This document shows positions 24,101 through 59,900 of a stretch of 64,000 nt of DNA, in pieces. The number at the start of each line of letters is the position of its first letter. Within the stretch, counting starts at the first letter, position 1. Source of the stretch: Bispira polyomma (lineage: Eukaryota); assembly GCA_965649765.1 (NCBI GenBank), contig OZ287751.1, positions 80,290,001-80,354,000 on the forward strand, in the 5' to 3' direction. The notes under the pieces are model-generated. The model worked only from the letters and a program-made list of their open reading frames with translations. It made no database searches and was not told the DNA's origin. A program made the position numbers and the translations under genes.

Positions 24101-27100
24101 ACACAGGTAACTTATAGTGATTGTAGATCAGTTGGATGACCTATGACCCGATTACATAGGTAACTTATAGTGATAGTAGATCAGTTGGATAACCTATGAC
24201 CCAATTACACAGGTAACTTATAGTGATTGTAGATTAGTTGGATGACCTATGACCCGATTATACAGGTAACTTATAGTGATAGTAGATCAGTTGGATGACC
24301 TATGACCCAATTACACAGGTAAATTATAGTGATTGTAGATTAGTTGGATGACCTATGACCCGATTATACAGGTAACTTATAGTGATAGTAGATCATTTGG
24401 ATGACCTATGACCCGATTACACAGGTAACTTATAGTGATTGTAGATTAGTTGGATGACTTATGACCTAATTACACATGTAAGTTATAGTGGTAGTGGGGT
24501 GACCTATGATCCGATAACACAGGTAAGTTATAGTGATAGTACTGGCCAGTTGGGTGACCTATGACCCGATTACACAGGTAATGTATAGTGGTAGTACTGG
24601 CCAGTTTGGGTGACCAATGACCCGATTACAGAGGTAAAGTATAGTGATAGTACTGCCCAGTGGGGTGACATATAACCCGATTACACAGGTAAGTTATAGT
24701 GGTAGTAGAGATCAGTTAGGTGACCTATGACCCAATTACACAGGTATGTTATAGTGGTAGTAGCTAGTAGCTCAGTAGGGTGACCAATGACTTGATTACA
24801 CAGGTAACTTATAGTGATAGTAGATCAGTGGGGTAACTTATGACCCGATTACACAGGTAGGTTATAGTGGTAGTGGGGTGACCTATGACCCGATTACACA
24901 GGTAAGTTATATTGGTAGTACAATGTACTGGCCAATGGGGTGACATATGACCCTATTACACAGGTAAGTTATAGTGGTAGTACAATGTACTGGCCAGTGG
25001 GGTGACCTATGACCCGATTACACAGGTAAGTTATATTGGTAGTACAATGTACTGGCCAGTAGGATGACCTGTGACCCGATTACACAGGTAAGTTATATTG
25101 GTAGTACAATGTACTGGGCAGTGGGGTGACCTGTGACCCTATTACACAGGTAGGTTATAGTGGTAGTGGGGTGACCTATGACCCTATTACACATGTATGT
25201 TATAGTGGTAGTACTGACCAGTGGGGTTACCTATGACCCGATTACACAGGTAAGATGTATGACAGATTATGTAGTAGTTATGTTGTACACCAGTAGGGGG
25301 TGACCTTTGTGACCTATTATATTTTGAACAGGTGTACTAAAATATTTAGCCAACAAAATCCCGAATTAACTTGATAACAGGATTCCATTAAAGATTTTAA
25401 TTCAGGTTATATTAACATTTGCAGTATGGTGTTCAGCATGATTTAACAACAGCTTAGAATAATTAATCATTCAGAAAGGGATTCCGAATCAAACTTAAGA
25501 AAAAGTTTGATCTAGTTTCTAACTTGAGAAAAGGGGTTCTATTATGTTCCAACTCTTTATTTACACTTGAATATGTGAACATGGTACTCATACTCTTTTC
25601 ATCAGTAAAATATGCTTTACTTTATTTTTGCTTGCAGACTTCAAACAATGAGTATACAATATACTTGGAAGCCTTACTTATGATATCTGATTTGTAAATA
25701 GTTGTGTTGATATTTAACTTCTTTATCTATATTTTAGCTGGTTTACTGGAGTGATGTCCAAGAGAAGAAGATCTACAGGGCTCCACTCCAAGGCCACACC
25801 AGAGAAGAGTTCCTCAATGTCTCACACGGGCTGGGCTATGTGGAAGGTTCGTCTTTATACTGTAAAAAAAAAGTGGAGCGACTGTTCTGTGTTAAAATGT
25901 ATTAGTACTTGTATTATGTGAACACAATTTGACTCTCCTGAGTTATGATTTTGCTATTGTTTTGTACTGAACTGTCTCTTCTATTTTATAAAAGACCTTC
26001 CTCTATCTGAACAGTATTTTGAGATAACAGAGGTTCTACTGTAATGTATGTTACATGTTAACCCTCTGAATGCTCTGTTCATCATCTAGTGTTCAACACC
26101 AAACATTTCCATTGCTTGTTTATTTCTTCTTGTATAGTTCACAAACCCATTAAGCACCTTTTCTGGTCACAAACACAAGATGTGTTTAGAACATTAATGT
26201 TTCATTCCTCTTGGCTATTTGGACAGATAATAATCGTCCATGCATTTTCTAAAAATCGGTTGCTCAGTATGTAACAACACTATATTTGTCATGGCAATGT
26301 TAATACTCATTAAAAAAAAGAATAAATTTTGTATTAAATAACCTGTACAATAGAACCTCTATTATCTGAGCATCTATTATCTGAATAATCAATTTCATAT
26401 ACCCATGTTTACTATGATCCCAGTTATAAATGTTACTATTGTTTTATAAAAAAAATGTCTCTTCTAAATTTTTAACCTTCTGTTGTAAGATTAAAATCTT
26501 GCTATTCTAAAATATTTTGATAGTAGAGGTTCTACTGTATTTACTTACACTTTTTAGGACTGTTTCTGGACTGGAAGCAGAGGAAGCTGTACTTTACCAA
26601 CTCAGATTTTGTGACCATAGACGGTACGGCTTTTAGCTGGCACAAGATACAAGTCTTAGATGTGGACACCATGGCTAGAAGAGATGTAGTGACGGATGTA
26701 AGGGAACCCAGGGGCTTGTTTGTGGATTCTCTGAATGGGTAAGTCACTCAACGGTTGTCATACATTCTCACATTGTAACAGTCAGCACTATATAGTGTAC
26801 CCCTAAAGTTCACTATGTTATGTATGAGTTAAAAGGCCAGGCCTCATAGCCTAGATAACCACAGCAACTAGATAACTAGAAGTACTGATTTTTCTCACCG
26901 ATCTTATAATGCACCGTTCTACTGTAATCTATTCACACCAACAATGCACACATATTCCCTCTACCGTACAATATGTGCAATATGATTTGATCATAAAATC
27001 GGATGAGGTGTTGTTTCCATATAAACAATGCCAGCAAGCTATATATATAGTAGATGATCAATATTTCTAAACACCTAGCACATATGATTTTCCCCTCCCC

Positions 27101-30100
27101 CTAAAAATTGCATTCATACATGTGACTTCAGATGTCGTAAATCAAATTCATATATCATAGGTCTAAGTGCACATACAATCAGTTGCTAGGAGTCCAGTTT
27201 ACATCTATTGCTAGGAGAGATATAGTGACTGATATTAGAGAACCTGGGCTCAAAATCCAAAAGTTCCAGACTAGGCTGACTATATATATTTTTATAGCAA
27301 TAACAGAATTACTGGATGTTTTTTCCCTGAATAATCTACACTTTTTACTACAATAGTACAATAATGTGATTTTGTAGGGTGTTATAAGGTTTTAACAGCA
27401 CAACATTAATCATTAACAGCCAAAGGGCCGTTAATGAGATAAAAAAAATTATTATGAGATAAAATAAAAAGCTGAAAACTACTATAAATCCTGATATTTT
27501 ACAAAAACACCCAAATAAAATGTGTCACTAAATATCATATTACACTTACGAAATATCATTTTAGTCTATATACACACTGAAGTGATTGTATAGTGATGTT
27601 CTAAACTATTTTATATGCCCACAATTCACCGAGTGTTTAAAAAACCACATAAAAATTATTGTATTGTGACGTCACACAGTCTCAAGATGTGCGTAGAACA
27701 CCATATTTGCACTGATGCTCCCCCTCATATATGTCTGCATAGAAGTCCCCCCTCTCCTTCCCTTAGTCTTCATATTTGCTGGATCAATACCTTTACAACA
27801 GAAAGTGTTCTCTAAGATTTGTTTGCATTGCAACAACATACAGCGATGACTTATATAAAATATGACTTCAGAGGTGAGCTGGTAATGGTTCAGCCTTTTT
27901 AGTAATGCCCGGCCAACTCGGAATTACAGTATTTTAGAATATATATAAATCATTGCTAACCTACTAGTAATGCCCACCTATCTAATAATTATACCAATTG
28001 ATAACAATTGCATTTGTTAACCAGATATCTGTACTTCACTGACATTGCTGATGAGCCAAAAGTCAGAAGGTGTGGCCTCGATGGGAGTAACCTGGAAACC
28101 TTGATGTCCTCAGACAATGGCCTTGAACTTCCTAATGGTATGTCAGATAAGGCTATGTTTACTTTATACTTTGAGAGTTGTCACAGGCATTTATAATACT
28201 GGTCGGGTCATAATAACGGCTAATGCATATTTTTACACACGAAACGTCAGTATATTCTAAATAAGTTATAATTTCCTGTAGTGTAATTGGTATTCTGTCA
28301 GTTAAATCAGTTTCTTTTAATAATTTCTATGCCTTAGCATTTGAAAATCTTGACGAACCGTATTATGTCCCGACCAATCTTATGTATGCCCTTGTAATAT
28401 CCTCATAAATGCATAAGGTTTTTTGGTAAATCATTTGCCAACTGGCCAAATAAAAAAATGATATCTTGAATTTTGAGGGTTTTCGTAAGTATTTTTTGTC
28501 CAAGTAGTGTTTCTGATATCTATCTCTTTCTGGTAATAGTTTATAAATTATTTCTTCCAATACAATTGTTTCAACATCAATATTTCGTCAAAATTTCACC
28601 TTAGGGTGAAAATTAGGTGCTATAGGTACCCTATATGTGCTTTATAATGTGATGTAATAATACTTGAACTAATAACGGTTCTAAAACTATCTTATTGGAC
28701 AGTGAACTAACAGTGGACTATGTTAATGATTTAGCCCTTTACATATGGTATAGCATCCAATTATCCATTTCTGTCTTACCTATCAGTGTGACATTACACA
28801 GGTTTTCTAAATAAATGTAAACAAATTTTCGGTGTATATTTTCACAGCTAATTTGCAGTATTTTAATACTAAAACTGTTAGAGTTTTGCAAAATTAAATC
28901 TAGAAAAGCTAAATTCAAGATGAATACAGTCAAGCCTGTACTAGTGACCACTCTCAAAGAGAGACCACCCCTATTTAAAGACCACTCTACTTGTGACCAC
29001 TCTCACAGAGAGACCACCCCTATTTAAAGACCACTGTACTAGTGACCACTCTCAAAGAGAGACCACCCCTATTTAAAGACCACTCTACTTGTGACCACTC
29101 TCAAAGAGAGACCACCCCTATTTAAAGACCACTGTACTAGTGACCACTCTCAAAGTGAGACCACCCCTATTTAAAGACCACTGTACTAGTGACCACTCTC
29201 AAAGTGAGACCACCCCTATTTAAAGACCACTCTACTAGTGACCACTCTGAAAGAGAGACCCACTCACACTTAAAGACCACTGTACTAGTGACCACTCTCA
29301 AAGAGAGACCACCCCTATTTAAAGACCACTCTACTTGTGACCACTCTCACAGAGAGACCACCCCTATTTAAAGACCACTGTACTAGTGACCACTCTCAAA
29401 GAGAGACCACCCCTATTTAAAGACCACTCTACTTGTGACCACTCTCAAAGAGAGACCACCCCTATTTAAAGACCACTGTACTAGTGACCACTCTCAAAGT
29501 GAGACCACCCCTATTTAAAGACCACTGTACTAGTGACCACTCTCAAAGTGAGACCACCCCTATTTAAAGACCACTCTACTAGTGACCACTCTGAAAGAGA
29601 GACCCACTCACACTTAAAGACCACTGTACTAGTGACCACTCTCAAAGATGTTGTGACCAGAGGCCACTTAAATTATTCCAAACAACAATATTTGACCTGT
29701 ATAGAATCTAGGAGAGACACTGATTCAAAAGATTATAGTATTGAGCACTCAGATTTCATAACAACAGGGTCTACAAAAACCAGCCGTTAATCAATGTCTA
29801 GACACCACTATTCAGCTCTATAGAAAGATATATGGTCTTGTTTTTGTAATGCTTTGTCTTTTGTGGTCTTTAATTTAATCACACATGCCACTTGTTTATT
29901 GTTGTGTAAATCTTGTAGGAGTAGCAGTAGGCAGTGAAGGTGTGTTTGTGGTGGATTCTTATTACAAATCACAGACAGCTGGGGTGTCGTCAGCCAGGGG
30001 CAAACTCTACATATATAGTGACTCGAGTAAAGATACAAAACTCGTGGAAAGTCAGCTTAAGGTAAAGGGTCTGACAAGTGTACAAAAACTGTACTAACAT

Positions 30101-33100
30101 AGTGACTTGAGTGAAGATACTGAACTCATGGAAAGTCAGCTTAAGGTAAAGGGTCTGACATGTGTACAAGAACTGTACTAACATAGTGACTTGAGTAAAG
30201 ATACTGAACTCATGAAAAGTTAGCTTAAGGTAAAGGGTCTGACACGTGTACAAAAAAACCTCTAAATATATAGTGACTTGAGTAAAGATACTGAACTCAT
30301 GGAAAGTCAGCTTAAGGTAAAGAGTCTCACATGTGTACAAATACTGTACTAATATAGTGACTTGATTAAAGATACTGAACTCGTGGAAAGTCAGCTAAAG
30401 GTAAAGAGTCTGACAAGTGTACAAATACTGTACTAACATAGTGACTTGAGTAAAGATACTGAACTCGTCGAGAGTCAGCCTTAGGTAAAGAGTCTGACAA
30501 GTGTACAAAAACCGTACTAACATAGTGACTTGACTAAAGATACTGAACTTGTGGAAAGTCAGCTTAAGGTAAAAGGTCTGATAAGTGTACAAAAACTCTA
30601 CACATATAGTGACTCAAGTAAAGATACTGAATTCATGGACAGTCAGCTTAAGGTAAAGGGTCTGATAAGTGTACAAAAACTCTACACATATAGTGACTCG
30701 AGTAAAGATACTGAACTCATGGAAAGTCAGCTTAAGGTAAAGGGTGTGATAAATGTACAAAAACTGTACTAACATAGTGACTTGACTAAAGATACTGAAC
30801 TCGTGGAAAGTCAGCTTAAGGTAAAGAGTCTGACATGTGTACAAAAACCGTACTAACATAGTGACTCAAGTAAAGATACTGAATTCATGGACAGTCAGCT
30901 TAAGGTAAAGGGTCTGATAAGTGTACAAAAACTCTACACATATAGTGACTCGAGTAAAGATACTGAACTCATGGAAAGTCAGCTTAAGGTAAAGGGTGTG
31001 ATAAATGTACAAAAACTGTACTAACATAGTGACTTGACTAAAGATACTGAACTCGTGGAAAGTCAGCTTAAGGTAAAGAGTCTGACATGTGTACACATGT
31101 ACAAATACATGTACCAATATACTTGACTTTACTGTTGGTGAAACACTGTTCGACTGGATTTTACACAGTTCCCATTCTGTTCCAAAGGTGTCAGCACTAG
31201 TTGTTTTATAACTGGCACATTCTTTATTTTATTCCAAGAGTAAATTCAGGGAGGGATTTAGACTAAAAATCATAATGCCCTCATGGAAGGACCTTGTGCA
31301 AGGTCTACCAAAGACACTGACCTCATAAAAAATCAGCTTAAGGTAAATAGAAACAGACATGTATAACAACTATATAGACATGGTGATCTGAGCAATAAAA
31401 GCTACACTAAACTCATGGAAAGTCAACTCCAGGTAAAGAGTCTGATACTGGTGTACTGTTGCATCTTGGTGGAAGTACATGCTCTACTGAGTGTCCTTCT
31501 AGTGTTGATATAAGGTTGGACTTATATGTTTTGTCCTCTGTACAGGTTCCCTTTGGCCTCTCCTCCTCAGAAGAAAGGACTCTGTACATCAGTGACTGGG
31601 GGACAGGGAGTGTGTTGCAGTACATACCAAACACTGCACAGTGGACAACACTGGTGTCTGATCTCTCTGAACCTTCAGGGCTGTTCTATACAAAGAGAGT
31701 GCAAAACTTGGATGGTAAGTTTTAGACAGTTTACAAACATATTTGTGGGCCATCTGTCTCAGGGGCCATTGTGGTATAGTGGTTAGTGTCTGCTGCATAA
31801 TTCATAATCACTGGCCTTGCCCTCACCAATGTAGGTTTGAATCCCATTCATTCCTTCATGTGAGAAAGTTTGTCAGACACTTACCATAGGTCAGTGGTTT
31901 ACAGTGCTTCATCATTGGTTTCTTTCACTATTGATATCTGGCAGTCATGATATGACCTAAGCTAAATAAAATTTATGCATCTATCTTACTAACTTTGATG
32001 ACACAATAGTAAGAGTCAGATGATTTATCTTCTTTATCAATGTGGCCTTGTAGTTAACATACTCACTTAGGAATGCAAAGGACCTGGGTTTGATACCAGC
32101 TTGGGGCTCACAGGTACAGGTAGGTACAAAGTGGTCATTGGCTTCTATATATCCAGTGGCAGGCTAAAAAAATTTGGGACGTTGATAAATGGTCATCCTC
32201 AAGCCACTCTCTTTAATTAAGAGAAATGACTGTTGCTGGTTGCTATTCTTGAACAGTCAAGAAAAGGTTAATTAGCACTTCATTAATTTTAATGTTTGTT
32301 AATGTCAACACTATTCACACAATAAAACCATGTGTTGGAGTTAATGGGTAAATCGTTTATGTGTCATGAGATCAATATCAAAGACAAAATTTGTTCAATA
32401 TTCGGACATACCAAGAAACTGGAAATTTTTTAAAACCCAAAAATTTGCACATACTTATGTACAGTATGTACAAACCCCTAAATTGGTAATAAGTAAGTAT
32501 GAACAGACTTAAAATGGTTATCATTTAAAAATTAAGGTATTGCCGTAAAATATGATCAAAATTGTTGTATAAATGTTATGCCAAGGTGAAATATGCCCCA
32601 TTTACAACATTGGTATGTTTGTCTTACACATCGATATCGCCACCAAAGAGTCTAAACAATTAATATTATTGGTAAACAATTTACCCTCTAGTTGGAGTTC
32701 ATGACCTTAAAGAAAAGGACTGAGGGAGTCTGACTCAGTACTGCTCTGGTATCTCAATATACCCTGGGCTATTTGAAGTTTCAATATCTAACTCAATCAC
32801 TTGGTTTTCATGTGGGTAGCATAATTATATCCCTCAAATTCTCGGGACATAGAACTGTGCTCTAATGTGAAAGTGTGATTCAATTGTTAAAATCAAGTAA
32901 ACAATGCCTATATACACTGGCTTACTATGTTTTGTTTCTATTTTATCGTCCATATTATATTTCATAACAGAGATCAAAGAACCATTGTGTAACCAAAGCT
33001 GTGAGGGACTTTGTCTAAAGGGTAGGGATTCGGAGTATGATTGCTTCTGTGATGGTTACTATAGTAACCTACAAAGGGAGGACAAGAGCTTCTGTTCAGG

Positions 33101-36100
33101 TAATGTATGTTTTAATGCTTTGAAAATCTTATTTACTGGCTTAAGGAAATGGTTCAAAACACCTCTGTATCAACTTGCTTTTCTGTCTTAACATTTTTCT
33201 GCTGCTTACGACTGAATTATGATCATGGACCTTTTCTCCTATTGGACTATTTTTTTGGCATACTAACTGGAATATGCGCCACAGAGGATGTCTGGTTATC
33301 GATGGCATTATAGAAGTAAAAGTTTTCCATTACATTGCATTTTAACAGACACACATAGAAACTGGCCGAAGTCATAATGTTTAATACATGTGCATGATTT
33401 CACAAAAGGTTCTGAGGCAAAATTATCAAATTAACGTTTTACACATAACCACCGTTACAGATGCAACACTTTAATACTATAAGCTAGTGTAATTGAAGTA
33501 CCGCAATTTAAGACAACTATTTGCAAAATATCTCTTCTGTTTTGCAACAAATGTAAGCATTTTTGACCAACCATGCAGCCATAATCTTAGACACAGTGTT
33601 TTTGGGCAGTTAAAGCTGGAGCAATGGTTTATTGTACATACTTGTATTCATCCAATCAATGTTAAATCTCTCTGTTGAACTGTTGTGCGTTCAATACTAA
33701 CCGTAACTACCTTTGATACAGTGACTTTGAGGTAACGATTTTCAAGAGGTAGAAGAGCTATTTTAGTTTCAAACAGTAGGTAAATATCAATTTGGGAGAG
33801 TTAATCAAATGGAATATTTAGGATAATGGAAGTTTGGATAATAGAGAATCTGCTGTTCAATTAAAGCATTTATCTTACACGGTCTTAACTTTTTGATATT
33901 TTCAGTTGGAGAGAACTTTATCATAGTGAGTGATCTCAACAGTATCAAGATCAAGTCCTTAGATCTGAGTAAAGCCATGGATGACTCGGCTGTGTATGTT
34001 ATACAGGAGGGAAACAAATACTTCACTAGTTACTCAGCCTTATACTATGACAGCAAGACTGCGACTGTGTTCTGCACTGATGTCAACAGGTAATAATACT
34101 GTAAATATTCAAATATGTAGTCTCTCTATATTAAAAAAGTTAATCTAAGTTTTACCTTAGCCTTATACTATGACTGCAGGAGGGAAACAGTGTTCCACAC
34201 TGATGTCAACAGGTTTTAATACTGTAAATTAATCAGGTAAGTGCCATCTCCCTAATAACTGGGGTCAGTGGTGTCCTAGTGGTTAGAAATGTTAGCATCA
34301 AAGTGTTCAGCCAAATATAAAAGTACCTTTGAGATAGTGTTTTAGTTACTTTTATTTCAAGAATTTATATAGCACTGAATTGATGACAACGCACCCTCTA
34401 AGGTGCTCGTTCGTGGAGAAAGGATAAAGTCATACAACACGGCATTAGTAGTCATCAGTAAACAATGGTGTGTTAGCATCTTGCCCAAAAATATGTTCTC
34501 CCCCTGTAGTTACCATTATGGCATTATTGGGAATTGAACCGCAGACCTTCTGATTGCCAGACCAACTCCCTAAAAACAATGCTTAACCTCTAATACGTTC
34601 AGAGAAACTGCAGAACAGTTGCGTCTGTCAGAGAAAACACCTCCTGAGGTCATTCATAGGGGGTTGATGTTACAGATGACGTGGACCAACTCCCTAACAA
34701 TGTTTAAACTCTACTTTCAGAGGAACTATAGAACATTTGAGTCTGTCAGAGAACATTTCCCATAAGGTCATCTACAGGGTGGCTGATGTAATAGATGATA
34801 TGCACTAACTCCCTAATCATGTTTAAACTGTACTTTCAGAGGAACTATAGAACAGATAAGTCTGTCAGAGAACACTTTCCCTGAGGTCATCTACAGGGGA
34901 GCTGATGTTATAGATGATGTGGACTTTGTCCAGTCTACTGGTCACCTGTATTGGACCTCAGAGTTTGAGGGCTGTATTAAGAGAGCACCTGTCCACAACA
35001 TGTCCAGGGTGGTCAATGTACTCTGTGACCTAGATCACCCACGCTCTCTGACTGTGGCTAATGTATTTGGGTAAGTATAATGTAAACTTAAAAACGAACT
35101 TAGTTCTGTTGTGGCTCTTGCTCTGCACTGACATTACATGCCTCACCTCCACGAACACCTGTCCTCAAGTCTTATACTACTACATCATGATTCGCTTGGC
35201 TTATGAGAGGGGGGGGATGTCTAAAAATGCAACTGAACTCAACCATGTAAACTTAAGAAAGGAACTCGGTTCTATTGGGATTCAAACCGTGGCTCTTGCG
35301 GATCTTAAGGTTAATAGTTGCATGCATCTAACACTTGAGCTAATGGGAAAACCACTGAACCTGAGTGTTTAATGGGCTGATACACAGAGAAAGAGAGAAA
35401 GAGTTTTTTATTATAGTGCCACCTGTAATTACAGTGTTATACACATCAAATGAAAACATTAACAAGGACAGCCTGTCCAATAGTTAGGCTTATGAGGTAC
35501 TCTATATACATCAATTTTACACTTAAAGTTAAATACATTGAGGAAATTATAACAAGTACTCATACTATACCATATTACATGGATGTTAAAATTACCATCT
35601 CTTTGTCAATTAAGAAACATTACAACTGCTGTATCAGTGACAATTTTCACCCAAATGTATTTTAGTTGTTTTTAGTACTTTTGTTGATAACTACTCAACT
35701 AGATAGAGTTAGGTTCCACTCCTGCTTATACATTATATAATTACTTGACCCTTTCAACATCTAGGTTGTCGGCAAGCAGCTGACAGCATTTCTTACTCCC
35801 AGAATCTATGTCTGTCAGCAAGCAGTCGACACCCCCCAAAAAAATATATTATTTTTCTTGAGTGAGTTCCTTGCAATAGGAAATCGTTAGTACAGCAGAA
35901 TCTCCAGTTTAAAAAATTATACATGAGGCTTTGGTTGAATAGACCCTCTGGAAATGAAGCTTGATCATTGTTTACAGTGTATTAGGCACTAACAAAAGCT
36001 AATACTTTAATCTATATTGTTTAATATATAACTGCGATTCTCTAACTTTTAGACTACTCTTCTGGATGGAGCTGGGATCCACTCCCTCTGTATGGTTATA

Positions 36101-39100
36101 TATCACTGGTTAATATATACCTGTCTTTCTCTTACCTTCAGACTACTCTACTGGACAGAACTGGGATCCATTCCCTCTGTTTGGTTATATATGACTGGTT
36201 AATATATACCTGTCTTTCTCTTACCTTCAGACTACTCTACTGGACAGAACTGGGATCCACTCCGGCTGTTTGGTACTCCAGAGTGGCAGGCACAGACAGG
36301 AAACCATTCTGGATGGCTAACGGAAGTGTCCCTAATGATGTGGTGTATGACTCGCAAAAATTCGCCATTTTCATTCTGGATGAGGGCAACAGAAACATCG
36401 TTGAATGTGATCTCAGTGGTAAAATGTCTTTTTAGCTTCTAAAATTGTTATATTGTGTGAAGGACTAAGCATTCCATTTTAAATAATCATTAATGTGTCT
36501 TAAAGTAGAACGTCTCTTATCCAAATATGTTGGAAGGGCAAGATTTTGTTGACATAATAGAATATTTAAAAATAGACACAGAAATTAGAAACATACATTT
36601 GTGAGAGGGGAATTCTTTTTATGACCTCATATGATTGATGATTCGGGTAATAGAGGAAGTGCATCATATCTAAAGGCAGTCTTTAGTAGTATTAAAAATG
36701 GATCGTCAGCAAAAATTACACAAAACATTTGCTGTAAACAGCCATATTCCACAAAAAAAGATCCAAACAAAAGTTCTGATACTGAAAACAGTGGTGTCCA
36801 ATAAAAGTGTGACCACAGAGGCAGGTACTCACGCCGGGTTTAATCTGATATCATGTGCAGGTGTATTCCCATGCTTCTCAAAAAGCCGACTAGTACTGGG
36901 GGTGACTTAAGTAACCCTTAATTTTTCTTGATAATTTTGGCTGCCCCTTGTAGGCAAGCTTACCTTTGGGTAATAAGTTACATATGTTGCTGGAGTCACT
37001 AAATCACACACCACAGACTCACTACCAGCATGAATCTAGTTCTCTATGATTTCTTTGGTACCGGTCAGTTTGTGGATCCATTCCTGGATTTTAGGTTTGA
37101 ATGCAGCATTGTACCTGGGAAGAGTAAGGAATACAGATTAAATCAGAATGACTCACTGGGCAAAAAACATTTCTTATGTATAATATTACCACTTTGGATC
37201 CCAACTGGTAAGAAAAAACTCTCGCCAGGAACTGAAGGAAAGAAATTTTCCGGTAATAGGTAACTAACAGATAGCTGGAGTCACTATAACACACACCCTA
37301 GACTACTTCCAGCGTTCAGCGGTCTTGCATCTATTTTTTAAACAAAGGAATCTGCTGTACTAACAATTTCCTATTGCGAGAAACTGAGGAAAATAAAACA
37401 ATATTTTTGGGGGTCTTGACTGCTTGCCTACAGACATAGGCTCCGGAAGTAGCAAATACAGCCGACCTTTTTCTGACAACATAGGGATCGAAAGGGTTAA
37501 AATGAAATTTTACAATTTTACTGTATTTCTTCTGTATATCAGGTAGAACCTGTCTCCATGTCGTCGACCTTGAGGGCAGTGGTCCATTCTTTGGTCTACA
37601 GACAGATGGGCAGTTTGTGTACTACTCTGACTGGGGGACTGGGTCAGTGCTCATGTACAACACACAGACCAATGTGACCAGGGTCTTAATGAGTGGATTA
37701 CTGAGACCCACCAGATTTGTAGTACATCACCCCACACAGATCAAAGGTACAGTATGTACTCATATAGTGTGAAGTAACTACCAGATTTGTTGTACATCAC
37801 CCCACACAGATCACAGGTACAGTATGTGATCATATAGTGTGAAGTAACTACCAGATTTGTGGTACATCATCCCACACAGATCACAGGTACAGTATGTGAT
37901 CATATAGTGTGAAGTAACTACCAGATTTGTAGTACATCACCCCACACAGGTTACAGGTGTGTGCTCATATAGTGTGAAGTATGAATTATGTCCACCCCAG
38001 TGGGGGGCGGACATTTATTTTTGCTTTTTCCGCCGTCCAGCGTCTGCTGTCCGTCATGCTTGGTTTCCGGTCATTTCAAGGAAAAGTATTTATCCTATGT
38101 TTACCAAATTTGGTATGGATGTTTATTGGGTTAATAGCTTGCATGGGATTGCTTTTGGTGAAGATAGCTCTATAGCTAACTGAGTAATAGCTACTTACTT
38201 ACTTTTGTGTACTTCTTTGGTTTCCGGGCATTTTAAGGAAAAATATTTGACATATCTTTACCAAATTTGGTATGACCAATAGTTAGGTCAATAGTTTGCT
38301 TGGGATTGCATTTAGTGATAATAGCTATATAACTCACTCAGTAATAGCTACTTAGCTACTTTTAGTAGCCTTTTCATTTTAAGCTTTTTAAAAGAAAAGT
38401 ATTTAACCTATGTTCAGGAAAAGTATTTATCCTATCTTTACCAAATTTGGTATGGGCGTTTATTGGGTAAATAGCTTTCATGGGATTGCTTTTGGTGCAG
38501 ATAGCTGTATAGCTAACTGGGTAATAGCTACTTAGCTACTTTTGTATACTTCTTTTGTTTCCGGGCATTTTAAGGAAAAATATTTGACATATCTTTACCA
38601 AATTTGGTATGAGCAATAGTTAGGTCAATAGCTTGCTTGGGATTGCTTTTAGTGGTAATAGCTATATAACTGACTGAGTAATAGCTACTTAGCTACTTTT
38701 AGTAGCTTTTTTATTTTAAGCATTTTAAAGGAAAAGTATTTCACCTATGTTCACAAAATTTGGGATGGAGGATTTTTGGATCAGTAGCTTGCTTGGGATT
38801 GCTTTTGGATACCTTTATAGCTAACTGAGTAATAGCTACTGTGCTATATAGCTATTATGCTATTTTGAGTTGACTTTTTTCTATACATTTTAATGAAACA
38901 ATGTTTTCTATCTTCACAAAAATTTATATGAAGGATAATTGTGTCAATAGTTTGGTCAGGATAGCTTTTGGTCGATGATAGTGTAGTAATGCTTATATAA
39001 TAAAAATTCTATTTAAAATGTATGATCACTTGTTATACTACTTCAATAATTTCTTGTGTTTTATAAGTCTGGCATTTCCTCCCTTGCTAAAAATTTCCCA

Positions 39101-42100: not shown

Positions 42101-44901
42101 TTTGTATTTTCTTCTTCTTTTTTTTGTTGGGGGGGGGGGGGGGACTAAAAATCCAATAATATTCTGGTTTATTTAAGTTATACAGGGTGTTCATAATACT
42201 GGTTTGGCCAATAATACCTGCTCGGTGCTTATTTGTGCACACAAGAACATTGATAGCTTTGAAATTAATTATATTTTTCTAAAGTTTTCTTATAATTCCT
42301 TAGGCTATGTCTGCTTTAGTCAAGAATATATATGGTTAGTATTTAGATAACCTGTCTTATGTCCCAATTAATATGACCTAATTATGTTAGACAGTGTTTT
42401 TATGATTCAATTTATATGACATAATTATGAACTCTGATCACGACCCTTTCCATTATTCGGACTATAGTCATGAATTGTGGTGCTGTCAAAGTAAAGCATT
42501 AGCATTAACCTGTATTATGAACACCTGTGTATTACAAACTGGGGATCTCTTACAATTATATTGTTTTTTAATTGTACAAGTCTTCATGGACTAAATCTTT
42601 CTCTAGCTACTTCATTCAGACCCGTTATCATTACATCAGATGAAGATTCTGTGACACAAACCAGTGACCAGACTTCTACAATGGATGAATATCGTACAAC
42701 AGCAGGGGTGGAGTATGTATCATCCACATCCTATGAATATTCAGTGACTGAAACAGAAGAGGCTGACTTGACTACAGTAGTTGAGACTAGTGGAGATTTT
42801 GATGACTTTACAACTGAAGATGAAAGAGAAACGACAGCTACTGATGAAACGACCACAACTTATGAGGACAGAGTTACAGATACAACAGAAGTGGTCCTGA
42901 CAACATTGGATGATATTGGTACAAGTGAACTGTCTGTAATAGGTGCAGAAACTACTACAGAATATGAGTTTACTACAAGGGAAGTAATTGAAGATACTAC
43001 AATTGAAGACTATGATCTTACTACAGAAATAGCAGATGTAGATACTACAATTGAAGACTATGAATTTACTACAGAAATAACAGATATTGGCAGTACAACT
43101 GAAGACTATGAATTTACTACAGAAATAACAGATGTAGTTACTACAACTGAAGACTATGAATTTACTGCAGAAATAACAGATGTAGTTACTACAATTGAAG
43201 ACTATGAATTTACTACAGAAATATCAGATGTAGATACTACAATTGAAGACTATGGATTTACTACAGAAATAGCAGATGTAGATACTACAATTGAAGACTA
43301 TGAATTTACTACAGAAATAGCAGATGTAGATACTACAATTGAAGACTATGAATTTACTACAGAAATAACAGATGTAGTTACTACAACTGAAGACTATGAA
43401 TTTACTGCAGAAATAACAGATGTAGTTACTACAATTGAAGACTATGAATTTACTACAGAAATATCAGATGTAGATACTACAATTGAAGACTATGGATTTA
43501 CTACAGAAATAGCAGATGTAGATACTACAATTGAAGACTATGAATTTACTACAGAAATAACAGATGTAGTTACTACAATTGAAGACTATGAATTTAGTAC
43601 AGCAATTACAGATGTAGATAGTACAACAGAAGAATACAAGTTTACTACAGAACGTACAGATGTAGATAGTACAACAGAAGAATATGACTATACTACTGCG
43701 GGAAGAGACAGAGCTACAACAACAGTAGATTATGACTACACTAGTGGAGAGACTGTAAAAGCCACTGTTACTACAACAATAAATACTTCTGCTGAAGGAA
43801 GAGATACAACACTGGCTTATACCAGTCAATATGTGGAGGTTACAACTGCAGAAGGTAGTACAGACAGGGGGAAAGATACCACAGAAGTTTATCAGACAGT
43901 AATCTCAACCAGTAGATATCCTGAATCATCAACCTCTGACGATGATGGTGTAGATATTGATACAACAACAAGACAAGTTAACCAGACAGAAATCTCCACG
44001 GACGAGTATACAAGTAGATATCCTAAATCTTCAACCTCTGAAGATGATAATGCAGAATTTGATACAACAACAGACACCATATATACTACTGGGGGGCATA
44101 CTACTGATGGTGATACTGCCAAGTATACTGAAACAGTGTTAACAACAGTTACTAAAGAAGAGGAGTACACTACAGAAAGGTATAGTACTAAACAGAGTAC
44201 TGACAGTGATACTCAAACTACTGGCTATACTGAAATAAGAACAACAACTGAAGAAGTGGATATGGTAAGTGAACAAGTGAAGACTACCACAGAGAGGTTG
44301 ATTGATGTTTCAAAGGATGCGACCACAGAATCTAGAGATATGCCTAGTGAAACAGATGCATTGACTGGAGAATACAATGGTACTACAGCAGCAAGTGATG
44401 ATACTGCACAGAATGTTACTGGAGAGTTAACATATACAACGAGTACTGCTAGTGATAGCCAAACACATATACCACTAGATGTGACTACAGACACGGTCAC
44501 ATTGACATCTTCAGTGTCAGAAATAGCATCAACTACAGAAGACTTTATGACAGAGTTACAGCTAACGACTGCACCTCTTATAGGTATTGTGGTGATTTTG
44601 TTTTTCTTAGTTTGTTTGCAGTGATTTATGAATGTGGTTTGTTTTATATTAAATTATTCTTTTTAGTTTTGGATCTGCAGTGTAAAAGGTTAAAGTTTAG
44701 TTGTACCTCAATTTTCTGATAATTCTGGTGTACTTGGTTCTGGGTTTCAATAATTTATATATATTGTGTCTTTTTGCCTTTTTATTCCCTTCTTGTTTTT
44801 GACAAAGTTAGATTTGTTGGAGTGGATTTAGTTTATTGGCATTACTCTCATCAATCTTAACTCAGGTCATAATAATGTTTGGTGCCTATGTGAATGTGTA
44901 C

Positions 44902-50900: not shown

Positions 50901-53900
50901 GTTGTAGATACAGTGGCTGAGAGTGACTGTCCACCTGGTACTGTCATGTTTACTGAACAATGTGGTAAGTATAGAGCTGTACCTTCCGGGTACACAGAGT
51001 CAGTGCTAGATGCAGTTAAAGTGGAAAATTTAACCCCTTCGCCACCGATTAAGAGTAAATATACTTTACCGAGGGAACATACTTTAATGACCTACTTTAT
51101 GAGGTCACAAATAAGGTTTTTGCAATAACTGAATACATTACAAATTACAAAATAAAATTAACTTTGTGTTAAAAGCATTGTACCACATTGATTTTATTCC
51201 TGTGTGCTGGCAGACGGACATGGCACTGGCGAATAGAAATAGCCATTGATCGAGGAAAACTCAAAGAAAATGTTACAAATTTCGAGACATTCACTGGAAT
51301 TAATTTTCAGTGTGAGCTATTTTGTAGTTAAAATATTAAAACAAATAATCTAATTTTTACTGATAATTAATATTCACCATTCCCAACGCATTAGCTAAAA
51401 ACAGCTAAAATCAATTGCAATAAGTGAATGTGCTGTGGCAATCCAGATTTCATTCATTGCTGTTCATAACGTAATCATGTGGCAATTATGACATCATTCA
51501 TTGCTGTTCATAACGTGATCATGTGGCAATTTTGATGTCATTCACTGCTGTTCATAACACGATCATGCAGCCATCATGGGGCCCTTCGGGGGTATTCTAC
51601 TTGTGCCTTCTCAAAAGAAGTAGTCAGTATTCTATATCCCAGACATCATGACAAGTATTCTTGGTTATTCTTTGACATATTTAGACAATCTTTCCCAAAA
51701 TCGTCTTGTAATTAGTGTGTATGAATACAATGCCTATCGTTGGCTGTTCTTATATCTACTTTACTACAGCTGAACAAAACCATATTTATTCTTGCAACAT
51801 TATATGCGTCTAATTTTTATAAACCTCCCAAAGCTGGCGCCCATTCCCCTCTCTGGTTTAGGTAACTAGCCGTGGAGTGCAATTTGCCTAGAATCTTGGT
51901 AGATTCACCCACTAAATCCTTACTTGATCTTACTGTGTGTGACGGTGCGTTTAGACAGTTAATTCTATTAATATTAAAACTGTCCACATACTGGATAAAT
52001 AAGAAAGGCAAATACTTACATCCAGAAAAGCTGAAAAAACTAACCTGTGATAAAGTATATGCTCGCATTTATATAATTGTTTGGTCCCAGTAGTCAGTCC
52101 TCTATTCTGTTAAGTGCTTCATAAAAAGGAGAAACTTAGCAAAATATGATTTCTTGTTTTTGACAAAATAAGTCAAATAGTTTCATCCCATGGTTTTCAA
52201 CCCATGACCTTTAGATTATCTGCCTTACTTATCAGTGTAATTCTATGCTTCCATCAAGACTGTTGTACCTGTTTTAGGCCTGTGTCCAAGTGGTACATTT
52301 TACAATGATGACCCGGGTGTATGTGAACTGTGTCCATCTGGATATTACCAAGGATTAGAGGGACAATCATCCTGTGTTGCCTGCCCACTGGATACTGTGT
52401 CCAATCCTGGATCATTCCTAGAAAAGCAATGTGAGTGTTTTGATATACTGGTACAGTAGAAACCCCAAATTTGTGTTTTACTGTTGTTTTTGTGCTAAAA
52501 TGCTGGTCTATTTGTAGAATTCAAACAAAATATATACATACTCTCCCAACATCAGGCCTCACAATATTTCAATATTTCCTTTATTTTCCTATGTTTTGTT
52601 AAAACCTATATTTCCAGTATTTTTCTTGAAAAAAATGTTGTGGTATCACAAAAATAATAATGTTTACTAGAAGTTCATGACTTTTTGGCCAATATCATAA
52701 AGTATAAAGTCACTGGATTGGTTTTAAGTCATCTGATCACTGACAGAATGATATTGTAGGATTTAAATTAACTTATTGAACAAGTTTCTAGAAGTGGTGG
52801 TTGTGTAAAGATTCAACGTAGCAAGGCTTCATTTTGGTGCCCGAAAATCCTATATTTTTCTCTATTTTGATTGAGATTTCTTAAATTCTTGCCTATATTT
52901 GATGATTTTCCTGTGTATTAAGATTTTTATCAGGCACACCCTGATATTGTTTTTATTTTGAAAAGAGCACCAAGATCGTATAAAATATCTAAAGCCTTGC
53001 TTGGAAGCAATCGACCAGGCCAAACTTAGGGGTGTTTTCTTGTTATCAAGGGCAGCCTGGGTCCTGAGTATATAGTGTCCATATCAATGTTAGTGTATTT
53101 TTTGAAAGACAGATCTTGTTATGTTGTGAGGCCTGCAACATAAGTTCATATAATAAAGTGTACATCTCTACACACACACAGGTCATGCAGTGCAGACACA
53201 ACCAGACAGGACAACGACTGAGGTGGAGGAGAAGAGCAATAAGACCTTACCACTGGTGATTGGTCTCAGTGTTGCTGGTGGTCTTCTCTTTCTGGCGGCC
53301 TTTGCCCTGGCCTGCTATACCTGTCACAGAGTCTTCAAGTAGGCAAACTTTGTTATTATCAGGTTTTAGAAAAAAGCTTAAACCCTATATCTCTTCAAAA
53401 TCGCCTTGTATAAGTGGATAAGTTCAATGGAATTAATTTTCACTTATTGGCTATTTTTATATCAATACAAATTCATATTGTGTTAATCTTCACTATCCCA
53501 ACTCATGAGCTAAAATAGTGAAATTGCACCTATATGTTCTGGAATGGCCTTCCTGTTGAGTGTAGATCAACTGGAACACTTTCTGGTTTTAGGAAAAAGT
53601 TCTAAACTTATCTCTTCAAACTCGCCTACCCGCCCCCCCCCCCCCCCCCCCTAGTTCCCTCGTTATACACCTACACATCCTTTCTTGCAACCGTGGCCAT
53701 GTTTTTAGACTTCTCTATGGGTCAACAGATTCTGTTGTTGCACTTTAGAAGATGCCCCACAGCAATAAAAATCCATAATTCAATACAATTAATGTAAACC
53801 CTTTGAACACCTATATTGTTGCCTAGTCAGTTGGCAACATTCCTTATTCACAGAAACCTATGTCGGCAAAAGCAGTTAATTATTATTATTATAGATTTTT

Positions 53901-56900
53901 AACGTGCTTTATTGATGCTAGGCATCTTCTAAAGCGCAACAGCAGAATCATTAGTCCAATCATTAAGTCCATGGAAATTGCAGAGTCGTAAGGAAGGAAG
54001 TGGGAGCGTGCACGAGGAAAACTAAGGTGGGTAGGCAAGATTAAAAAGATAGGTTTTAAGCTTTTTCCTAAAACCGATAAGTGTGTCAACTGATCTGAGG
54101 TCAACTGGGAGACTGTTCCATAACCGTGGAGCTGCGGTGGAGAACGCTCTGAAACCCGCCCTTCTGATTGGTCTGACCGAAGTGACAGAGAGTCTGTTGC
54201 CTCTCTTGCGGTTACTAAAGGAAAGAAGGGAGGCAAGGTAGGGTGGCTGTTGAGTGATTACAGCCTTAAAAGTGGTAACATGAATTTTAAACAAAATTCG
54301 AGATTTAATGGGCAGCCAGTGTAATTTTTTGAGGTAAGGAGTGACGTCTGTGCGACAATCCAGGCGAAAAATGACCCTACATAGGTAGTTTTGGATGGAC
54401 TGGAGCTTTTTAATGTTTGACTTATTTGCTTCGTACAAGAGAGAATTGCAGTAGTCGAGGCGGCTACTTACAAGGGCATTTGCCACAATTATCGCTGTGT
54501 CCATGGACAAGTGGTTTCTGATTCTTTTGATGTCGCGTATGTGGTAATAGCAGGAGCGACAGATGTTGGCAACATGAGTATCGAACGAAAAAGCTGAATC
54601 AAAAGTGACACCCAGGTTTTTAGCATTTTCGGAAGGTAGTATTAACACCTCAAAAAGGTATTTCATTTTCCTTCAGTAGCTCGAATTAGCAACATGTTCA
54701 GGGGAGTAGCCAGGATTTTTCATCTGGTACTCCCAAATTAAAATTAAATCAATATATTAGGTCCTTTTTTGTCCTACAAAAAATTAAATTCGTAGGGGGG
54801 AGGGGGGGGGGGGGGCGTTATGTGAGGCAACAACATAATAAACTTGAGGAGTACCAAATTTTTTTTTTGAACAACAGGAATCTATGTTAAAATAAAATGA
54901 ATTTTTTTTTTTTTTTTTTTTTTTTTTCAAATATTTTTTTTGGGGTTTTTAATTTTTTTTTTCTTTCTTGTCATTAAATTGGTAAGCCTGGGCGTACTGG
55001 CGTTAATGGTAGCTACACCCCTGCAAATCCTGGTCATTACCACTCGGCGAACCTTGAAACCTCTAAATTTCCCCAAGAAACATTTATAAAGGGGCTGGAA
55101 GCATGTATCAGTTTTTATTGTTCAGTCAAGTGAAAGAGATGGTTCCACATGGGTTAATAGATATTGCAAGAGGTCTGCAAGGTTTAGTTGGCTACATGCA
55201 ACTTCAAGTAATGTATATTATAGACACTAAAGGAAGAAAAGTCAGAGAATCCACATGTTCAAGGAAAGGTGGGTAGAAGAGGAGGAGCAAGATGTAGATT
55301 CTGGATCAGACTATGGCTAAGGGAAGAGAACAAGGTCATTATACAGCACTTGTGCCACGCATGGAGGTTCAAGATCTCCAGTCTTACAGGAATTTATTGA
55401 GGATCCCCTGGAATTATTCCAGGAAATGGAGAGGAGGGTGGAGCACAGGATACAGAAACAGACCACCTGGTTCTAGAAACGACTGTCCCCTGGACTCAAG
55501 ATAGCTATCCTTTGAAACATTTAGCAACTAGGGGGCCATACACATCACTGCAACACTCTTTAGTGGTGTGCAGGTCAAGCATCACCACGTTTATGCCACA
55601 GGTTTGCCAGGCAATCATAGATGAGTTCCAGGAAGAATTTCTGTCATGCCCCACCACCCCAGAGGACTGAAAGAAGGTTTGAGTCTGTCTTCAGGAACAC
55701 ATGCAATGTACTAAATGCCCTGGGGCCATAGATGGGCAACATACTGCCATTCAACGTTCAAGAAAAGAGGGGCAGTAAATATTTAAACTACAAAGGCTTC
55801 CACTCCATGGTGATGCTGGCCTTAGTGAATGCAGAATACAGGTTCCTGTGGGTCAACATGGGATCTAGTGGGTTCAGCTCAGATTCCCAGATATTCATTA
55901 GGTCAGAACTGAAAAAGAAGATAGAAGATCGGTCCATCAACTTCCCCCTCCTGAAGCCATAAACCCTTTCAGGCACCCCATCCCCCACTTCATCCTTGAG
56001 ATGGTGCCTCTGCACTGAAGATCTTGCTCATGAAACCCTTCTCCAGATGAGGGATGTACCCGAATTAGCGGATTAACAACTACAAGATTTCCGGAGGGAG
56101 AAGGGTAGTAGAGAACTTTGAACTGAGGTAATGGGCTCTACTCTCTACTATGCAGCAAGAACCACCAGTGGTAAAAACCGTAACCCTAGCCTGTGTCGTC
56201 CTACACAAGTGATGAGAACCGCTACTAAAATAAACCAGGCAATGTAGCACCAAAATCCAGAAGACGACCCACCCATTCCACAGGAAGCACTTGCAGGAGA
56301 TAATATCCCACATGTCAATAGGAATCTTAGCGGGGGAGCCAAGCAATAGAGAGAGATACTCATAGGCTAATAGTACATGGAGTATGAACCAATCGGTCCT
56401 TGTGACGACCAACCAAAAAAGGCCCTTTTCAGGGCCACCCAAAACTTCCAAAAACAATATCTAAGCTTTTCTTCTTGGTTACCCAAATTTTTTTACAGAA
56501 AGCCCCCGTGACAAGAATCAAACTGGCCCCACAAATGACTTTACTTAAGCCCCTGTCACACTATGCCGACCGATCAGGAGGAGACCCCGATAATGCGGTC
56601 GGGAGCAATCTTTAACATTTTGCCCCAATTTTGGAAAAAAGGGCGGGAAATTTTACGTCTCACGACTATAATCGTAATGGTTCCCGAGTCTTATGATAGA
56701 TCAGGAACAAGGCCCGATAGATGGGGACAGATCGGGAATTTTTCCAAGAAATGGAGAGGAGGGTGGCCCCCAGGACTGCAAAAAACACGACCTGTAACCG
56801 CACGGCACTCTCACCTGGACTGAAGATTGCAATAACTTAAAGACATTTGGCGACTGGGGAGTCATACACCTCACTTCAGTACACATTTCGGGTGAGGAGG

Positions 56901-59900
56901 TCAACCATCACCACGTTTGTTCCCGAGGTTTGCCAGGCAATTACCAACAAATTCCAGGTGGAATTCCTCTGCTGCCCCACCACCCCAGAGGACTGGAAGA
57001 AGGTCGCAGCTGTTAACAGAGACAACTGGCAAGTCCCCAATGCCCTGGGGGCCATAGATGGCAAACACATAGCAATGATATGTCCAAGAAAGGGGGGAGT
57101 GAGTTCTACAACTACAAGGGATTCCACTCCATTGTTATGCTGGCCCTGGTGGATGCTGAGTACCACTTCATGTAGGTGGACCTGGGTTCCATTGGCTCCT
57201 GGTCTGATTCACAGATTTTCAACCAATCTGAATTGAAGGAAAATATTGAGGACCAGTCTATCAACTACCCCCTACCTGAACCCATAAGCCCTGGTAGGCC
57301 CCCCTCCCCCTACTTCATCATGGGAGACGACGCATTTGCCTTAAAGACCTGGATGATGAAACCCTTCTCCAGACGAGGCCTGGACCCCAACGGATGTTTA
57401 ACTACAGGATATCCCGCGCATAAGGGTGGTGGAGAATGTCTTTGGTATATTAGTGGCCAGGGTTAGACTTTTACTCTCGACGATGCAGCAGGAACCACCT
57501 GTGGTAGCCACCTTAACCCTAGCCTGTGTAGTCCTCCACAACATGCTTAGAAGTAAAATTATCAACCATGGAGGAGACCGCCCAAACCCAGCAGATGACC
57601 TCTCCGTCCCACAGGTTGCACTGATTGCAAATCAACACAACCCAGCCAACATCAGAAATCCTAGCCGAGTAGCTAAGGAACAGAGAGATGCCCTGATGAA
57701 CTACTTCATGAATGAACCATTGCAGAACGACCATGTTTGAAGCCTCCCCTGAGCTTGAGGCAGAAAAAAACAATCGGCCCTTTTTAGGGCCACCCAAAAC
57801 ATCCAAGAACATGTTCTGAGCTTTTGTTACAAAATAAAATAAAACCCAAACCCCTCATTACAAAATACACATTGGCCCCACACAAAAAATCCACAATACA
57901 GAGACAAAGAACAAAACATTATCACCCCCTTACATACTTAATGAAATGAAATTCATAACTGTCTAAACCCTAGTAAGAACTTGTAAACTCCAATCTTAAA
58001 CACCTTTAAGTGGAACTCTCCCCTTTAGTTTTAAAACCAAGGAAATAAGTCTGTCAAATTATTTCTTTTTTTATTTGGACAGCATAAAAATAAATTGCTC
58101 AGTTCTTTAAACTCTGTAAACTGCTTCAAGTAGCACTCTTTTAAGGGGACATTGTCTTAAAAAGACTTCTACTTGGATGGGTTTTCAAATTTAAAGGGGG
58201 TTATATGTGGAAGGGCTTTATATTATAAAGGGGATTATATTTGGAAGGGTTTCATATCATAAAGGGGATTATATTTAGAAGGGCTTTTGTATGTTTGATA
58301 GTTTAGAAATTATTTTCATTTTTTTGTGTGGGGCCAAGTTTATTTTGTTTTGTGTGTGAGTGAGATATATTATTTGTGGGGCCAGCAGGGGAGGAGCCAG
58401 GATTTTTCATTTGGTACTCCCAAATTAAAGCAATATATTATGTTCTTTTTTTGTCTTACCAAAAATTCAATTCATGAGGGGGTGGGACATCAAGGTAATA
58501 TTTTGGTTTAATTGGGGGATACCAATTTTTTTTTATTTAACAAGAGAAATCTATGTTACTACTAAAACAAACAGAATAAAAGGAAGTCTAAATTTATTTT
58601 TTTTCAAATTTTTTTCAAATTTTTTTTTTTTTTTTCAAATTTTTTTTTTGCTTTCTTGTCATTAAATTGGTACGCCTGGGTGTACTGGCATTAATAGTAG
58701 TTACGCCCCTGATGTTATTACTGCAGTATTTTCTGTTTTAAAAATGTAAACATAATCAGAGGCCATTATGAAATGACGGAAGTCATCTGTGGTGATTTTC
58801 TGATTGTCAGCTTTAGAAAATAGTAGTGCTACTGAACTGACAGTTCATTTATTGACTTTATGTGGTGTAATACCTGCAGAACAGTTCTACTATGTTTGCA
58901 CTTCTTGCATTTTAACTCCTTTTGCAATTAAAACCGCAGTATTTGCCCGTGCTGAAAGAAAACACCTGGGGAATAGATTCTGATTACTGGGGGTCTTTTC
59001 ATAATGAACTCCGGTAAGTTTTTTTAAACATACAATTTTGCCGGTTCTGGTACATCTTAAATGTGGAGTGTACTAAATGAACGTAAAACAGTATTATGGG
59101 AGTTTTGACTTCTTTCCACTGAGTGCCAGTAACTGTCAATCTCCAAACTGAAGACAGAGGCTTGAGGATGACTATATATTTAATGTCCCTACGTTCTTAA
59201 CCCGGCACTGGGATAGGCCCCAATATCTGAGGGCTGCCATTTTGAGTAGTTATCTGAACCACTATATACATGTCTATACCTGGTCGCCGCAGGCTGGTAT
59301 CAAAGTCAGGTGCTCTGTGTTCCTAAGCATCATAGGCCATAGTGGCAGACGTCATTCTTACTCTTAAGACCTAATATTAATCAAGTTTTGGATCTTATTG
59401 CTAAAATTTATACACCAGGGCCCGTATTCACAAAGGGACTTAGCCAGGTCTTAAGCTTAAATCTAGCACAAAAGTATACTGAGTTAAGCCTAAGACCTGG
59501 CTAAGTCTTTTCGTGAATACGGGCCCTGGGGCCTTATTCATAAACATTCTTAGAAATTTGTTTGTCTCAGCCAATGGGATTCTTTAAAAAATATTTTCAG
59601 TCAATCAAGTTGATTGAGACAAAAATTTAAGAATAAGAATCTTTGTGAATACCAGCCATAGTTTATGAATGGGAATTTCTTACTTCTCACAACAACAAAA
59701 AAGCTTTATAAAATGAATAGTTTATTATTGTCATTAAAAATCAGCGAGGTTTGATATAATTACATGTAGCATTTTGATTTATTTTATACAATTATAGCCT
59801 TAACTTTTCCATGAATTTCTTGTCGAATTGTTTACTGTATGTAATTTATTTAAAATAGTCATTCATTATGTAAAACAAACCAGCTTTTTATTGTTTTTTT

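Follow-up and report, generated by a model that had tools for sequence, protein, structure and literature searches.

Composite DNA transposons and their relatives

Macrotransposition, in which two DNA transposons and the segment between them move as one unit, is well shown in maize but has seldom been dissected in animal-type genomes. The maize cases are hAT macrotransposons, those of Tam3L at White Cap (10.1101/082677) and of Ac (PMC9910405). In these, two whole elements enclose a donor segment, neither has a target-site duplication (TSD) of its own, and one TSD is shared at the outer edges; the White Cap paper applies the same diagnostic logic as is used here. The subject of the present work is a 4,013-bp block in Bispira polyomma, in which two direct copies of a miniature transposable element with inverted repeats (MITE), A and B, bound dead transposon DNA and probably moved together with it. 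It lies in a 64-kb stretch of 36% GC (contig OZ287751.1, forward-strand positions 80,290,001 to 80,354,000; assembly GCA_965649765.1), which is termed the window and within which positions are numbered. The block differs from the maize cases, as these are described, in its 5-bp rather than 8-bp TSD, in its 325-bp MITEs of two subfamilies rather than multi-kilobase elements, and in its cargo of dead transposon DNA rather than genes; neither donor nor transposase was found here in the searches made.

An animal case of DNA mobile as a unit between two DNA transposons is the Ising transposable element (TE) of Drosophila melanogaster, a foldback-bounded composite. As described, it spans hundreds of kilobases between long foldback elements, against 4 kb between MITEs here (PMC6431247). 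KolobokP, from marine invertebrates, resembles the block in having direct terminal repeats with their own terminal inverted repeats (TIRs), which also occur solo, but it is described as a stable lineage that carries a transposase of its own as well as a His-Me nuclease and has RR..YY termini and repeats of 450/660 bp (PMC9587614). Identity with KolobokP was rejected: the termini here are CAG..CTG, the repeats are 325 bp long and of two subfamilies, and the interior is foreign DDE_Tnp_4 Harbinger DNA and single-copy.

Animal Pack-TIRs likewise have TIR ends around captured DNA, and a 5–7.5 kb family described below resembles a multicopy Pack-TIR after loss of the inner TIR. Pack-TIRs are filled inside one element (gap filling, FoSTeST), whereas the cargo here is bounded by two whole elements (PMC8277862). 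The 5-bp TSD given for hAT5 fits the MITE ends (PMC12730594); membership is putative, no transposase having been tied to these ends in the searches made. Among the top 6–20 entries of the literature listings searched, which did not extend to Repbase Reports or subscription papers, no MITE-pair composite amplified in an animal genome was found. The mechanism is already known from maize and Drosophila, and what is added here is an amplified sister element with decaying inner ends.

Anatomy of the block

The features of the block are as follows. The target is a host MITE that we take to be piggyBac-like.

54643..54698, + strand: host piggyBac-like MITE, surviving left part, consensus 109–164, with the target 5-mer at its end; 43 identities in 54 aligned bases
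54694..54698, + strand: left TSD copy ATGTT; the host consensus has a single TTGTT at this point
54699..55023, + strand: MITE copy of subfamily alpha (A), 325 bp, with its left end as the outer end of the block; TIR of ~14 bp, imperfect, CAGGGG(A/C)GTAGC(C/T)A
55024..56548, + strand: Harbinger-like H1, dead DDE_Tnp_4 transposase; ~340 bp of the 5′ end gone, cut exactly at A; TAA at its end, where H2 begins
56549..58385, + strand: Harbinger-like H2 nested in H1, dead DDE_Tnp_4 transposase; natural terminus at its start, ~596-bp internal deletion near 56735–56742, cut exactly at B
58386..58711, + strand: MITE copy of subfamily beta (B), 326 bp, with its right end as the outer end of the block
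58712..58716, + strand: right TSD copy ATGTT; junction crossed by 100%-identical contigs
58712..58812, + strand: host piggyBac-like MITE, surviving right part, consensus 160–258; 72 identities in 95 aligned bases

A reading made from the letters alone had proposed two direct copies of about 325 bp around dead Harbinger transposases, neither copy with its own TSD and ATGTT outside the pair. All of this is borne out. The order is ATGTT (54694–54698), CAGGGG at 54699, CCCCTG to 55023, CAGGGG at 58386, CCCCTG to 58711 and ATGTT (58712–58716). A is thus flanked by ATGTT and CAAAT, and B by GCCAG and ATGTT, so that the 5-bp duplication is found solely at the outer edges of the pair. The two copies are direct repeats, 73% identical with low-complexity indels counted, and enclose ~3.4 kb of cargo (55024–58385). 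Both TIR pairs are present in A and in B, and because the copies are in direct orientation, the left end of A and the right end of B form a normal, compatible pair of ends. Every junction is legible because each component, whether target, end or cargo piece, is a multi-copy repeat; annotation MITE by MITE would miss the composite unit.

The right outer junction (58666–58979/59169) and the H1/H2 junction are crossed by public short-read contigs at 100% identity, of which the assembled individual is a possible source. Among the contig matches listed, no piece bridges the other block junctions; the contigs come from one study and one metagenome, and contig assembly drops rare alleles. The metagenome run X1, with its small share, was left out of the evidence.

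A long terminal repeat (LTR) retrotransposon or its miniature form (TRIM) was also considered. Such elements have TG..CA repeats that are near-identical at insertion, and a fixed multi-copy interior. The CAG..CTG ends, the different subfamilies of A and B and the single-copy interior led to its rejection.

The target site

The host family is a TTAA-flanked MITE with ends CCCTTTCG...GAAAGGG followed by TTAA, ends that presumably mark it as piggyBac-like. When the outer flanks of the block are aligned separately, the left runs as far as host consensus position 164, and the right takes over from 160/161; none of 1,000 shuffles reached either score. On 30 individual host copies the flanks overlap by exactly 5 bp in 26, by 8 in three and by 4 in one. 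The 5-base overlap identifies ATGTT as duplicated host DNA, and the outer flanks are contiguous at these paralogous empty sites.

The sequence-only reading held that removal of the block rejoins a piggyBac-like MITE, and offered the alignment of the sequence from 58712 onwards to the host consensus as a check. The alignment is there, and the rejoining is supported by the overlap, with the proviso that the host copy is only a remnant (~54643–58812, consensus 109–258). Three host copies in the window had been called colinear; those at 17890 and 61410 give the 5-bp overlap, and that at 4550 gives an ambiguous overlap of 10. Further host copies lie in the window near 35745–35940 and 37210–37500.

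The MITE family of A and B

The assembly searched comprises 1.035 Gb in 75 contigs. It holds at least 1,552 right ends of the MITE family (30-base right-end pattern, up to two mismatches) and 420 exact matches to a 32-base left-end pattern. TSDs were scored at 80 loci fetched with 5 kb on either side: 79 taken in genome order from the left-end matches, omitting those fetched earlier, and L255, chosen for its missing TSD. They contain 73 two-ended copies and eight partnerless left ends. An exact 5-bp TSD flanks 52 of the 73, eight have one mismatch in five, one has an exact 6-bp TSD, and 12 have none by these criteria. In a BLAST-selected set, A and B excluded, the TSD is an exact 5 bp in 46 of 65 copies, and these 46 share no fixed target sequence. 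A chance 5-mer match has a probability of 0.002 by composition, and cross-paired flanks match in 5 of 5,256 cases. The TSD length of other copies, proposed earlier as a check on the block, is thus 5 bp.

Some copies, at loci L007, L013, L016, L020, L109 and L256, depart from this: 2–4 extra bases stand between the left TSD and the TIR (for instance GACTA+ATTT / GACTA; AACCAG+TG / AACCAG), perhaps filler from imprecise end joining, and TSDs of 6–7 bp also occur. Seven left-end-only copies that were compared have nothing in common past the MITE start except one short stretch.

Independent copies with their own TSDs lie 2–12 kb apart at other loci (L132, L133, L136/137, L138, L236), and a substrate for a composite therefore exists. 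No other two-MITE block with unique cargo was found among the close pairs of L131–L133, L136–L138 and L236, all of which have own TSDs or are tandem duplicates. One of these, the direct pair L131:1752-2067 / 5049-5397, with 3.3 kb spacing, was rejected as a composite; its identical flanks and own TSDs mark a tandem duplication. For the TSD-less copies L140, L213, L234, L244 and L255, no partner bearing a matching outer TSD was found within ~5 kb.

Two other arrangements were seen. L133:1658-1946 and 7690-7968 are close relatives, inverted at 6 kb spacing with a TSD each, and resemble local hopping. L208:3423-5157 is a 1,735-bp element with both MITE ends, a TATCA TSD and ~1.4 kb of other sequence inside, either a nested insertion or a filled copy.

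A and B belong to different subfamilies. Groups formed from 62 other copies comprise 25 alpha, 20 beta and 17 that are neither, and in the tree A and B fall on opposite sides of a 100/97 branch, with the bootstrap not fully settled. Between columns 56 and 213, B has the beta state at all diagnostic positions where it shows one state or the other. A is alpha at columns 36, 56, 96, 97, 109, 110, 133, 137, 140, 161 and 213. No reciprocal swap between A and B was found over the ~160 central columns that can be scored (56–213).

The cargo

The cargo holds two transposase remnants, 71% identical to each other, with stops and frameshifts in both. They match Pfam DDE_Tnp_4 (E 4.6e-10 and 1.6e-6); five window frames were tested, two of which came out above the cut-off, and one further frame gave a weak match to Plant_tran. 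DDE_Tnp_4 and a TWA target beside a GCC/GGC terminus are features that we take to mark PIF/Harbinger elements, and the cargo has the DDE_Tnp_4 matches as well as TAA followed by GCC/GGC at the starts of H2 copies.

H1 and H2 each come from a dispersed family of their own. Past the cut at A, the upstream part of H1 continues with a common motif in 11 of 12 anchored family copies, for ~340 bp to its own terminus. Past the cut at B, H2 continues with a common motif in 11 of 13 anchored copies, for ~780 bp (six of 19 H2 copies do not reach the anchor). The H2 start after TAA is a natural terminus, with unrelated flanks there in other copies, and the ~596-bp H2 deletion is colinear within the element. 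Because the H1/H2 joint is a natural H2 end, the cargo can be read as a single uninterrupted piece of a donor. Because H1 and H2 continue elsewhere past the cuts, this piece is the central part of a locus with H2 nested in H1, and at each inner junction one half of a separate MITE insertion site is preserved. A separate MITE insertion, with its own TSD, lies inside another H1 copy (L145:4329-4657).

H2 contains an internal inverted repeat (57771–57889 / 58320–58385), the right arm of which runs past the cut in other copies, and H1 at 56393–56541 matches its left arm.

The cargo is dead and without apparent function. It is passive junk, and hence has no direct biological consequence at the locus. 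The likeness to a bacterial composite transposon that had been drawn for the block holds for its probable movement as a unit; it fails for the payload, as nothing in the cargo is a selected one.

Origin of the block

A one-off macrotransposition via the left end of A and the right end of B accounts best for this anatomy, and its probability is put at about 0.82. At a donor locus, H1 would first have received H2. A would then have entered H1 and B would have entered H2, independently and with their own TSDs; of these, CAAAT and GCCAG, the block retains just the inner copies. A transposase that makes 5-bp TSDs, acting in trans and probably of hAT5 type, would have paired both outer ends and excised the 4,013 bp, and the block would have inserted at ATGTT in an old piggyBac-like MITE, in one cut-and-paste jump. 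A TSD found only outside the pair makes it likely that the 4-kb block jumped as one piece. The family TSD length, the host duplication, the exact cuts in the cargo, the two subfamilies and a second family that skips inner ends all favour the earlier proposal that the block moved as a unit by its outer TIRs. MITEs of 325 bp would then be able to mobilise kilobases of unrelated DNA.

Some observations weigh against such a jump. The copies on which the subfamilies were built had been retrieved by searching with A and B themselves, and the assignment of A is less clean than that of B: A is beta-like at columns 116, 117 and 157, keeps letters at 216–227 that many alpha copies have deleted, and differs from the alpha consensus by 8.9%, the median for alpha members being 4.8%. 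The first 35 and last ~90 bp of the MITE have no diagnostic sites, and a crossover there would be invisible. An empty-site allele, which the sequence-only reading had advised looking for, was not found, as the contig joints listed do not include one from 54698 to 58717. No excision scar (H1 5′ joined to H2 3′) was present in the 30 of 38 pattern matches examined; three weak matches to one H1 copy among these loci are positioned elsewhere. No autonomous element with the MITE TIRs lies within 1.5 kb of 30 of the 150 listed matches to the hAT domain PF05699, and tblastn of open reading frames from those loci against other loci gave no match.

An outer TSD and sharp inner junctions would also be expected had a solo MITE already occupied ATGTT, with either a circle of cargo and one MITE crossing into it or a break in it being repaired from a two-MITE donor. 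There are precedents for both: circle integration into a solo terminal repeat has been proposed for KolobokP (PMC9587614), and template-switch gap filling is reported to explain most single-copy Pack-TIRs in animals (PMC8277862). The block itself is not amplified and is single-copy as far as searched, which suits such capture. The lack of a central swap between A and B weakens the circle model, named earlier as the alternative, since exchanges would be confined to the uninformative MITE ends. Repair copying leaves its donor behind, and neither a donor nor a second block copy spanning a MITE junction or the H1/H2 joint was found among the 40 best candidates per search (cargo; H1 with the A junction), the donor search having been advised with the first description of the block. 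Among the contig joints listed, one passes over the cargo (54815 to 58488); it falls within the MITE repeat, has only 21 bases on one of its sides and is not assignable to this locus. Capture of this kind also requires two rare steps, and is considered unlikely.

A far smaller likelihood is given to reversed-ends transposition with re-replication, in which two nearby MITEs would have inserted with their outward flanks, and the flanks would have been joined by repair within the block. In maize this yields transposon termini around duplicated segments with an outer TSD (PMC4270019), and the cargo does have two internal joints. One of these is the natural H2 terminus after TAA, whereas the other is the colinear ~596-bp deletion within H2, and the 40 best candidates include no source copies of the flanks. 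Least credible of all is an assembly chimera or a chance match of five bases. The region is highly repetitive and no single public contig among the pieces listed spans the block, but a misjoin would not produce a host duplication of family-specific length. The overlap on the host is exactly 5 bp, the cross-pair match rate is very low, and two junctions are bridged at 100% identity.

An amplified family with a MITE right end

Macrotransposition past inner ends may have a second product in this genome. In three TSD-less MITE copies (L189, L190, L231) the left flanks are 90–97% identical over kilobases and diverge exactly at the MITE right end. When L231 was extended, a left end was found at a distance of 7.2 kb. 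It is flanked on the outside by GGCAAC(+TT), and the right end by GGCAAC. The reference copy is as follows.

G000:C2:48,236,679-48,243,876 (L256:7780 to L231:5077): 5–7.5 kb element; further copies L280–L299, L189 and L190

With both ends of the element as queries, 40 of 40 scored candidates matched at 87–100%, and its left-end motif has 93 matches at ~68 loci (hand count, matches within 1 kb merged). Twenty copies were fetched, 14 of which have both outer ends. The outer TSDs of these 14 are an exact 5 bp in eight, 6 bp with one mismatch in two, two mismatches in two, and none in two.

The right end of the element is a whole MITE, whose inner TIR is intact in 10 of the 20 copies, deleted in nine and not reached in one; in the family, inner TIRs range from intact through nibbled to lost. 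Three copies (L282, L283, L291) combine outer 5-bp TSDs with an intact inner TIR, and thus an inner end can be bypassed in the MITE system; in this family, movement by the outer ends across an inner TIR still intact has taken place repeatedly. The inner TIR is preceded by an RVT_1 fragment cut at the MITE, and scraps of reverse transcriptase from long interspersed nuclear elements (LINEs) are found inside the element. Among nine exact pattern matches the RVT_1/MITE joint varies by 0–6 bases, a variation that may stem from cutting and rejoining of the inner end more than once. At the left end stands a ~145-bp fragment from a sister type of MITE, with the right TIR lacking its last four bases; it may once have been a whole MITE.

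The 5–7.5 kb family resembles a composite that is turning into an ordinary pack element. It suggests that composites can be fixed as ordinary non-autonomous elements through loss of the inner ends, after which their origin would be hidden. On balance we lean slightly towards the view that this MITE family breeds long transposons by pairing, the block in the window being a fresh single-copy composite and the 5–7.5 kb family the same process after amplification. If so, multicopy Pack-TIRs of animals would have a third route of origin, by capture in a composite and later decay of the inner ends, with several stages visible in one genome.

Other repeats in the window

A repeat of very high copy number, judged by the depth and loose ends of the contig matches, lies directly to the left of the host remnant (53879–54642), with kin at 17500–17772 and 53536–53769. 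To the right of the block, a short palindromic repeat that recurs at other loci occupies 59415–59529. Tandem arrays are found at 9173–9567, 24012–25260, 28936–29648, 30002–31133, 38060–38981 and 42951–43743.

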